From NCBI GenBank assembly GCA_051252135.1, contig JBPOGH010000001.1, forward strand, positions 32,001 through 96,000: a stretch of 64,000 nucleotides of DNA. Direction: 5' to 3'. The number at the start of each line of letters is the position of its first letter. Position 1 is the stretch's first letter. Under the pieces are notes generated by a model. That model saw nothing but the letters and a program-made list of their open reading frames with translations. It searched no databases and was not told the origin of the DNA. Shown piece by piece: positions 49,113-49,247 of the stretch. A program made the translations under genes and the position numbers. This DNA comes from Verrucomicrobiaceae bacterium (GTDB lineage: Bacteria; Verrucomicrobiota; Verrucomicrobiia; Verrucomicrobiales; Akkermansiaceae).

Positions 49113-49148
49113 AAAAAGCCTGTCGGCTTCGGGTTAAGCGCGACAGGC
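49113..49148 (-). terminator. Attenuator terminator in the thiC leader
   Basis: Minus strand GCCUGUCG-c-GCUU-aacccg-AAGC-CGACAGGC-UUUUU. Confidence 0.85.
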
Positions 49149-49167
49149 GTGAGAAAGATTTTGGTCT

Positions 49168-49247
49168 GACTCCTGGTTCCGCAGAGCGGTTCCAGTGGTG
49201 AGGGTATGATCTCAGGATCTTCGTTTTGGCGAAGAAACACCCCTGTC
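49168..49247 (-). ncRNA. TPP-riboswitch-like aptamer with non-canonical P4/P5 arm
   Basis: GAC-AGGGGUG-UU-UCUUCG-ccaaaa-CGAAGA-UC-CUGAGA-UC-AUACCCU matches P1-P3; the next part CACCA-CUGG-AA-CCGC-UCU-GCGG-AA-CCAG-GA-GUC lacks the usual CCUGAU..UAAU..GCGUAGG. Confidence 0.8.

Follow-up and report, generated by a model that had tools for sequence, protein, structure and literature searches.

In the textbook thiamine pyrophosphate (TPP) riboswitch, switching occurs only upon the clamping of two arms by the ligand. TPP acts as a clamp between these two arms (PMC2018614), the three-way junction is a k-junction (PMC10573300) and the UGAGA sequence forms a lonepair triloop taking the pyrimidine (PMC2258182). 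Repression by canonical switches is reported to need recognition of the pyrophosphate, and their affinity for thiamine is about 1000-fold lower than for TPP (50 uM vs. 50 nM; PMC4112796). Departures from this scheme have been described. The main text of McCown 2017 (PMC5473149) mentions many TPP variants with P4-P5 mutations whose affinities for thiamin, TMP and TPP are similar, and cites a study by Roth et al. in preparation. The variants treated in the relevant passages of PMC12632268 are engineered ones only. Moreover, well-conserved TPP aptamers can be unresponsive, as reported for diatoms (PMC9544697).

The element considered here lies in a window of 64,000 nucleotides, the whole stretch of Verrucomicrobiaceae DNA that was analysed. 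It occupies positions 49247-49113 of the minus strand, upstream of thiC (47002..49089, minus; ATG start codon at 49089), which encodes a phosphomethylpyrimidine (HMP-P) synthase of 695 residues scoring above cut-off with TIGR00190 and with NCBIfam NF006763 (987 bits vs. a cut-off of 650). About 40 N-terminal residues of ThiC (48963-49089, minus) precede the start of the NCBIfam profile, and this is likewise the case in sister genera. An earlier note on this DNA had read the leader as a TPP-riboswitch variant, and every element that it named (P1, P2, P3, CUGAGA, CACCA, the second arm and the terminator) was located on the minus strand where it had been placed. A partial or low score with the Rfam TPP family had also been foreseen. 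Over the 701 bases surrounding the leader, RF00059 is without a match at E<=10, and it has none above cut-off across the source genome; among the leaders of seven relatives, three reach 21-25 bits (best 24.7), for a gathering threshold of 54.3 bits. In the scan of the window, no Rfam family matches the leader at gathering threshold, and at E<=10 only chance lncRNA and snoRNA models appear. Elsewhere in the window, the Rfam matches above cut-off are an Acido-Lenti-1 RNA (46.2 bits) and a tRNA, at 5710-5755 and 57595-57678 of the plus strand, respectively. The predicted fold of the 145-nt leader is more stable than 200/200 shuffled sequences (z -4.15); the aptamer alone folds no better than shuffles (z -1.3 and -1.4).

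A search for ThiC in 61 genomes gave 30 loci, 27 in the genus of the window and three in other families, one genus locus that starts inside the gene being excluded. The variant leader precedes thiC in 34/34 genus loci found through ThiC (26 + 8), 33 of these leaders being distinct. The three thiC leaders from other families are canonical by eye and match RF00059. In the following, residues are numbered as in E. coli thiM, the mapping having been made by eye from the Rfam consensus and from the structural descriptions of PMC2018614 and PMC9171761.

Sequence comparisons show that half of the aptamer is maintained. Both strands of P1 (GAC, 49247-49245; GUC, 49170-49168; minus) are invariant in the 33 distinct leaders. 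The same holds for the whole 5' strand formed by P1, P2 and the G19-U20-G21 equivalents (49238..49247, minus), which also serves as the 5' strand of the antiterminator and is thus paired in both folds. On the other side of P3, the segment 49201..49215 (minus) comprises the CUGAGA pyrimidine pocket of J3/2 (49215-49210), a 4-nt tail, A47 and the 3' strand of P2. CUGAGA and ACCCU are invariant in 33/33, and the tail varies (UCAU, UUAU, UCAG or UAAU), following a pattern shared with canonical TPP aptamers. P2 is present, as had been proposed; under the consensus structure of Rfam, if applicable here, the 7-bp helix drawn earlier becomes four Watson-Crick pairs (AGGG/CCCU) together with the J3/2 region. 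The J2/4 strand (49196..49200, minus), of the type YACYA and reading CACCA here, keeps the equivalents of A53 and A56 of the three-way k-junction, and J4/1 GA followed by the GUC of P1 (49168..49172, minus) does not vary in 33/33. CACCA had been considered as a possible novelty of J2/4; this was rejected, canonical aptamers of Halomonadaceae and Gemmatimonadota carrying the same strand. Overall, the positions invariant in 33/33 are both strands of P1 and P2, G19-U20-G21, C38, UGAGA, A47, the A53 and A56 equivalents, the first pair of P4 and the GA of J4/1. They include the equivalents of G19, G40, G42 and A43, the pyrimidine contacts named for E. coli thiM (PMC9171761; PMC2018614). The P3 hairpin (49235-49218, minus) shows two-sided changes at 4/7 pairs. 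Thus, the pyrimidine sensor made of P2, the T-loop-like UGAGA of J3/2 and a covarying P3 is retained in all 33 leaders, as are the sequence features of the k-junction (P1/P2/P4, J2/4 adenines, J4/1 GA), whose fold would presumably be retained as well.

The second arm (49173..49195, minus) is a remnant of P4(/P5) devoid of the pyrophosphate pocket and variable past its first 3-4 bp. In the window, it consists of 4 bp, an AA/AA loop, 4 bp and a UCU loop (49195-49173). The CCUGAU ... CGUAGG consensus of P4-J4/5-P5-J5/4 is absent from all the variants: a CCUG(A/C) start or a CGNAGG end is seen in 0/33 variant arms vs. 46/47 and 45/47 sister aptamers, respectively. The loss of the pyrophosphate pocket claimed in the earlier note is therefore borne out, and none of the 34 genus leaders found through ThiC has the canonical P4/P5 that, in close relatives, would have counted against the earlier reading. 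In contrast, the idea that the arm is a rebuilt sensor finds no support, since the AA/AA plus UCU form occurs in 1/33 distinct leaders, that of the window itself, and neither the length nor the loop of the arm is conserved. Short arms of 16-18 nt are found in 19 leaders, which have no internal loop, and long arms of 23-28 nt in the other 14, which have no conserved one. On the ThiC tree, the length class switches about five times, at least two of these switches being placed by well-supported branches.

Part of the arm nevertheless behaves as a selected helix. The first P4 pair is C-G in 33/33, and the first two pairs have a pyrimidine on their 5' side in 33/33. Pairs 2-4 covary, with 48 two-sided cells vs. 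a shuffled mean of 14.7 (reached in 0/500) and far lower values in slid controls; at pair 3, eight changes are counted on each side along the ThiC tree. The covariation that the earlier note had suggested looking for in the new P4/P5 of relatives is thus found for the first 3-4 bp of P4 and not for the distal arm, AA/AA and UCU included. These patterns mark the selected part of the arm as a short helix. In the 16-nt arms, the 6-nt loop resembles the L5 consensus, with A at position 4 (16/16) and U at position 2 (15/16). Such arms look like a P5-L5 fused to the junction, a resemblance that may reflect inheritance within a subclade.

The base of P3 is also rewritten. P3a is missing in the variant leaders, and a new 2x2 pyrimidine internal loop (within 49216..49237, minus; UU at 49237-49236, UC at 49217-49216) is found as UU/UY in 33/33. 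In sister genera, the same site mostly forms Watson-Crick or G-U pairs (46 parsed). UU/UY replaces the two P3 pairs above G21-C38, where the canonical L5 docks. In canonical TPP RNA, A70 contacts C22-G37. L5 docking also puts A69 on C24 (PMC2018614). With the P3 receptor changed to UU/UY in 33/33, a loop whose position varies by at least 5 bp and L5-like letters restricted to the 16-nt arms, the features of this docking are missing.

Upstream of the aptamer, the -35 hexamer TTGACA (49284..49289, minus) is invariant in 31/31 genus leaders and stands 38-42 nt before P1, which points to a promoter function; a simple promoter scan made no call at this hexamer. The 17 nt that follow TTGACA contain no invariant position in the 31 leaders. 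A weak C-A...T bias at this spacing suggests a likely -10 element of the CAnnnT type (49262..49267, minus), which would place the start of transcription some 5-10 nt ahead of P1. The possibility of a leader peptide was set aside, as the indels among relatives break any reading frame in the alignment.

Downstream, a spacer hairpin AGA/UCU (49151..49167, minus) pairs in 25/25 sequences, with zero covariation, and is extended by GAG/CUC in the predicted ON fold. It is followed by the anti-aptamer strand (49142..49151, minus), which overlaps the 5' arm of the terminator and keeps eight pairs in 25/25, with one change from G-C to G-U. The segment 49151-49142 is the partner of the 9/10 pairing proposed earlier for the 5' strand of the aptamer, which the sequence confirms. 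The putative intrinsic terminator, a hairpin with a U tract (49113..49148, minus), is part of the minimum-energy fold of the full leader; its cells are paired at 94% in the 25 sequences, and the sequence of its loop is variable. Terminator and antiterminator are both conserved across genus leaders, in agreement with the earlier view of a TPP-derived leader in which they are intact.

Nascent-transcript folding was computed for transcripts cut immediately before the 3' arm of the terminator. In the 43/47 sequences that were parsed (4 were not), the antiterminator is more stable than the aptamer by a median of 13.3 kcal/mol (8.7-18.0). The same advantage of the ON state is predicted for six canonical leaders of genus g26 (9.5-13.0 kcal/mol), and it falls to 1.0 and 2.8 kcal/mol for two canonical g30 leaders with an incomplete P1. 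For the full leader, the two folds differ by a median of 1.8 kcal/mol. P2 is predicted to form in about 5% of the ensemble of the free aptamer. With ON as the predicted default and P2 this rare, the OFF fold would depend on a stabilising factor that acts co-transcriptionally. In the predicted ON fold, the UGAG of the pocket pairs with the CUCA of P2/J2-4, and many invariant bases take part in two or three alternative helices.

The distribution of the element was studied with RF00059 and with a covariance model trained on 46 variant sequences. At E<=0.01, RF00059 matches 0/37 genus genomes vs. 23/24 genomes of other families; within the family, it matches 0/16 genus genomes, 0/1 of genus g36 and 118/133 of other genera. 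Of 52 thiC leaders from sister genera, 47 parsed as canonical, two have no TPP-like leader and the remainder were unparsed. L075 (G227) and L109 (G063) are thiC leaders without a TPP-like aptamer in about 600 bases upstream, and in genus g21 RF00059 is unmatched in 2/2 genomes. L064 and L069-L073 (genus g30) are canonical TPP aptamers in which the 3' strand of P1 deviates from GUC, so that some members of this genus may have a weak or displaced P1. In another family of the phylum, L275 (G283:C4:41791-41877, minus) is a TPP aptamer before a thiC-like gene with UA/AG instead of the consensus AU/CG in its P4/P5 loop, and represents a milder variant of the pyrophosphate pocket.

The variant model gives one strong match (70-101 bits) in 37/42 genus genomes, many of them by construction, and three additional matches of 24 bits. 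In the five genus genomes that have no strong match, thiC is absent or reduced to its 3' end at a contig edge. In G006, G014 and G031, which belong to the same genus and are 64%, 92% and 92% complete, neither thiC nor the leader was found; these are assembly gaps or possible pyrimidine auxotrophs. Outside the genus, one strong match was obtained among 134 family genomes of other genera (G242, genus g36) and none among 149 other genomes sampled from the phylum, where 20 weak matches appeared; all 19 of those inspected are TPP aptamers with a P4/P5 arm. A pattern search across GTDB returned 68 matches, namely 37 variants, 21 canonical TPP aptamers with a CACCA-type junction and 10 chance matches by eye, and a search of metagenomes returned 33, of which 30 are variants and 3 were judged chance; both patterns are tied to the letters of this lineage and therefore blind to P5-less variants that arose independently. 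thiC follows 29/30 of the metagenome variants, the remaining one being cut by the end of its contig. The carriers are uncultured Akkermansiaceae/Verrucomicrobiales, several of them marine according to the naming of the sequence records.

The exception to this placement before a thiamine gene, with an expression platform, is found in G242. There, L204:568-646 (= L283:3721-3799) carries the variant aptamer and TTGACA without antiterminator or terminator, and is followed, near the contig end, by an ORF on the opposite strand, which we take to resemble a REP-associated tyrosine transposase. ThiC was not found in this genome (72% complete), and L204 is possibly a copy orphaned after the loss of thiC.

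In a ThiC tree of 48 rows obtained by a quick method, 31 carriers form one clade (SH-aLRT 96) nested among 17 canonical sequences. This topology argues for one origin, by modification of an ancestral canonical thiC riboswitch, and the model trained on variants alone likewise has canonical TPP aptamers as its second-ranking matches (19/19 inspected). In genus g26, identical antiterminator and terminator sequences stand behind a canonical aptamer.

The conservation of the core must be judged against the divergence of the gene that it precedes. In 24 full genes, 0/245 fourfold-degenerate sites of thiC are invariant, with a mean pairwise identity of 47%. With fourfold sites near saturation and a leader core invariant in 33/33, the invariance of the core reflects selection. 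The predicted ON fold leaves 15 invariant positions without a partner. Eight of them (equivalents of G18, A43, A47, C48, C49, A56, U87 and C88) are explained by the fold of the TPP aptamer, which indicates that the ligand-binding conformation itself is selected. Four others, the equivalents of U22, U23 and U36 and a C of the spacer loop, find no explanation in the known roles of the TPP fold. Moreover, part of the invariance of UGAG has an explanation independent of a ligand, since it is paired in the ON fold. It should also be noted that covariation lends zero support to P1, P2 and the antiterminator, since none of them varies. Purifying selection thus maintains two mutually exclusive folds and the terminator, a signature expected of a working switch. 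The earlier opinion that the element is not decaying is upheld by this invariant core, set against the fourfold sites, and by the compensatory changes in P3 and P4.

The metabolic context was compared in five genomes, three of the genus and two of sister genera. thiG, thiE, thiD and thiL are present in 5/5. TenA, thiamine pyrophosphokinase, ThiM and the CytX family were found in 0/5 genomes and PnuC in 0/3 genus genomes; for NMT1/ThiY, 45-residue fragments alone were detected, in 2/3 genus genomes. A cause in gene content, whether a lost thiazole branch, a lost ThiL or acquired salvage, was thus rejected, the genus showing no difference from the two sister genera in these five genomes. A scan with the variant model found no second aptamer, the three 24-bit matches aside, and thiG, thiE and thiL lie directly behind other genes. 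In L116 and L125 (G000:C3, C30), thiG starts 3 nt after one ORF, presumably malate-dehydrogenase-like, and thiE overlaps the end of another, presumably biotin-carboxylase-like; thiG and thiE appear to ride on housekeeping operons. HMP-P and HMP-PP are the products of ThiC and ThiD. Because the de novo pathway is complete and no salvage genes were detected, the plausible intracellular ligands are HMP-P, HMP-PP, TMP and TPP, all downstream of ThiC.

Descent from a canonical thiC riboswitch, with loss of both the J4/5-J5/4 pocket and the Watson-Crick receptor of L5 in P3, is shown by the above comparisons. What the descendant senses can be approached as follows. With the pyrophosphate pocket lost and the pyrimidine pocket and terminator under selection, sensing likely proceeds through the pyrimidine half alone. 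We therefore favour, with moderate confidence, a transcriptional OFF switch for thiC that would read the aminopyrimidine ring without discriminating phosphates. When the ligand is absent, the nascent RNA is predicted to refold into the antiterminator, its 5' strand pairing with 49151-49142 and UGAG with CUCA, and thiC would be transcribed. A ligand stacked in the CUGAGA pocket would hold P2, the k-junction and P1 until the terminator forms. TPP, TMP and perhaps HMP-P or HMP-PP are candidates for being read in this way, their phosphates going unchecked. The P4-P5-mutated variants of McCown 2017 (PMC5473149), similar in their binding of thiamin, TMP and TPP, speak for such a reading. With neither a salvage kinase nor a transporter detected, and with the leader seen before thiC but before none of the other thiamine genes, the switch would read out the combined pool of ThiC products that bear the pyrimidine, in which TPP probably dominates. 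Several points stand against this pyrimidine-only reading. The reported need of canonical switches for the pyrophosphate, with their much weaker binding of thiamine (PMC4112796), is one of them. Of the clamp that TPP makes in canonical RNA, the second pocket and the docking of L5 on P3 are both gone. The predicted advantage of the ON state is no smaller than in the g26 sisters, although one would expect it to shrink for a ligand that binds less tightly. The ligand-independent explanation for part of the UGAG invariance, the lack of covariation in P1, P2 and the antiterminator, and the unresponsive aptamers of diatoms (PMC9544697) also weigh against it. Finally, the invariant UU/UY loop has no place in this explanation.

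UU/UY finds a role if the RNA senses HMP-P or HMP-PP selectively and disfavours TPP, the shortened arm and UU/UY building a new phosphate site near the pyrimidine ring. This we regard as unlikely. In its favour, HMP-P is what the gene under control produces, only one pair separates the new invariant loop from the pyrimidine pocket, and RNA can sense HMP-PP (PMC6478431). The loops of the 16-nt arms, with their conserved A4 (16/16) and U2 (15/16), are L5-like but only 5 bp from the junction. However, the arms of 23-28 nt (14/33, window included) shift the loop and share no internal loop, the 16-nt arms belong mostly to one subclade, so that their loop letters may be inherited, and gene content offers no special reason, the thiazole branch being present as in sister genera. 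It is thus with a low expectation that we propose a new class derived from half a TPP aptamer, in which the pyrimidine pocket and UU/UY would turn thiC off in response to HMP-P or HMP-PP and not to TPP. If this were true, thiamine precursors would here have their first OFF switch, and nature would provide an example of evolution from a two-pocket to a one-pocket aptamer.

The predicted energetics raise another question. The binding energy of a pyrimidine pocket looks too small for an unchanged advantage of the ON state, judging from the affinities in PMC4112796, the folds of the full leader lie within a median of 1.8 kcal/mol, and two or three alternative helices share many of the invariant bases. 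The trigger might then be other than a free small molecule, either a protein binding the aptamer or a kinetic choice between terminator and antiterminator in fixed proportion, which would give a constant read-through. This seems rather improbable: the equivalents of A43, A47 and A56 and the pattern of the J3/2 tail are kept although unpaired in both two-dimensional folds, with roles known only in the tertiary TPP fold (PMC2018614), and the candidate protein is hypothetical.

A further alternative, which we hold quite improbable, is that the RNA is still selective for TPP and grips the pyrophosphate through replacement contacts provided by UU/UY, by the backbone of P4 or by the invariant C of the spacer loop. 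The element is the sole feedback point seen for the pathway, with one model match per genome, and the conserved 5' pyrimidines of the first two P4 pairs (33/33) would correspond to C57 and C58, which in E. coli thiM border the space of the thiazole with their backbone (PMC9171761). Against this, the arm has neither conserved unpaired guanines nor an internal loop at the distance spanned by TPP. Finally, neutral decay of a dead TPP riboswitch, to which the lost pocket, the drifting distal arm and one orphan copy with an eroded platform (L204 in G242) might be attributed, is highly improbable given a core that is invariant while fourfold sites approach saturation, recurrent compensatory changes in P3 and P4, and a terminator and antiterminator that are kept.

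Whatever the trigger, this lineage kept the pocket of one arm, dropped that of the other and held the result invariant through the saturation of synonymous sites. If the pyrimidine-only reading is correct and the RNA is still responsive, binding in a single pocket can drive switching; if it responds to no thiamine compound, a conserved trigger of another kind would be involved, which would also be new. The 46 sequence variants, of 76-92 nt, form a natural set of constructs for studying the rewriting of riboswitch specificity. They also stand for a class of thiamine regulators wholly missed by Rfam, in marine bacteria where B1 and its pyrimidine precursors matter ecologically.

A full-text literature search, most subscription journals being outside its scope, returned neither a description of the element nor a follow-up of Roth et al., and the TPP and thiamin passages of a 2022 review of riboswitch ligands mention no such class (PMC9971707). 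Among described systems, the HMP-PP riboswitch (thiS motif; Atilho et al. 2019; PMC6478431) is likewise a riboswitch of thiamine synthesis, and its ligand, a pyrimidine precursor, is a candidate here. It differs, as described there, in having its aptamer embedded in the terminator and in being an ON switch of Firmicutes for genes of the thiazole branch. The present leaders do not share this architecture: their terminator loop is variable, the conserved aptamer is upstream of the terminator, and no match to Rfam is found. With the canonical TPP riboswitch (RF00059, E. coli thiM type, and sister thiC leaders), the element shares its position before thiC, the letters of P1 and P2, CUGAGA, the J2/4 and J4/1 strands and the first P4 pair and, in the case of g26, the antiterminator and terminator sequences. 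It differs from it by the absence of the J4/5-J5/4 pocket (0/33), an unfixed P5/L5 geometry, UU/UY, the lack of P3a and scores of at most 25 bits. A third system is that of the variants of McCown 2017 (PMC5473149), also derived from the TPP riboswitch, with an altered pyrophosphate core and the pyrimidine half kept. As far as their main-text description allows a comparison, which leaves an overlap possible, those variants sat within the TPP consensus of the authors, whereas here the internal loop is absent or unconserved, the docking site in P3 is rewritten, and the gene controlled is one of de novo synthesis in genomes without detected salvage genes. The possible new variant announced by the earlier note is thus a conserved element found genus-wide, but its kind is not new, P4-P5-mutated TPP variants being already in print (PMC5473149). 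On present sequence evidence, the element can be considered as real, conserved, genus-specific and missed by Rfam, and as an unusually extreme form of the P4-P5-altered TPP variants.
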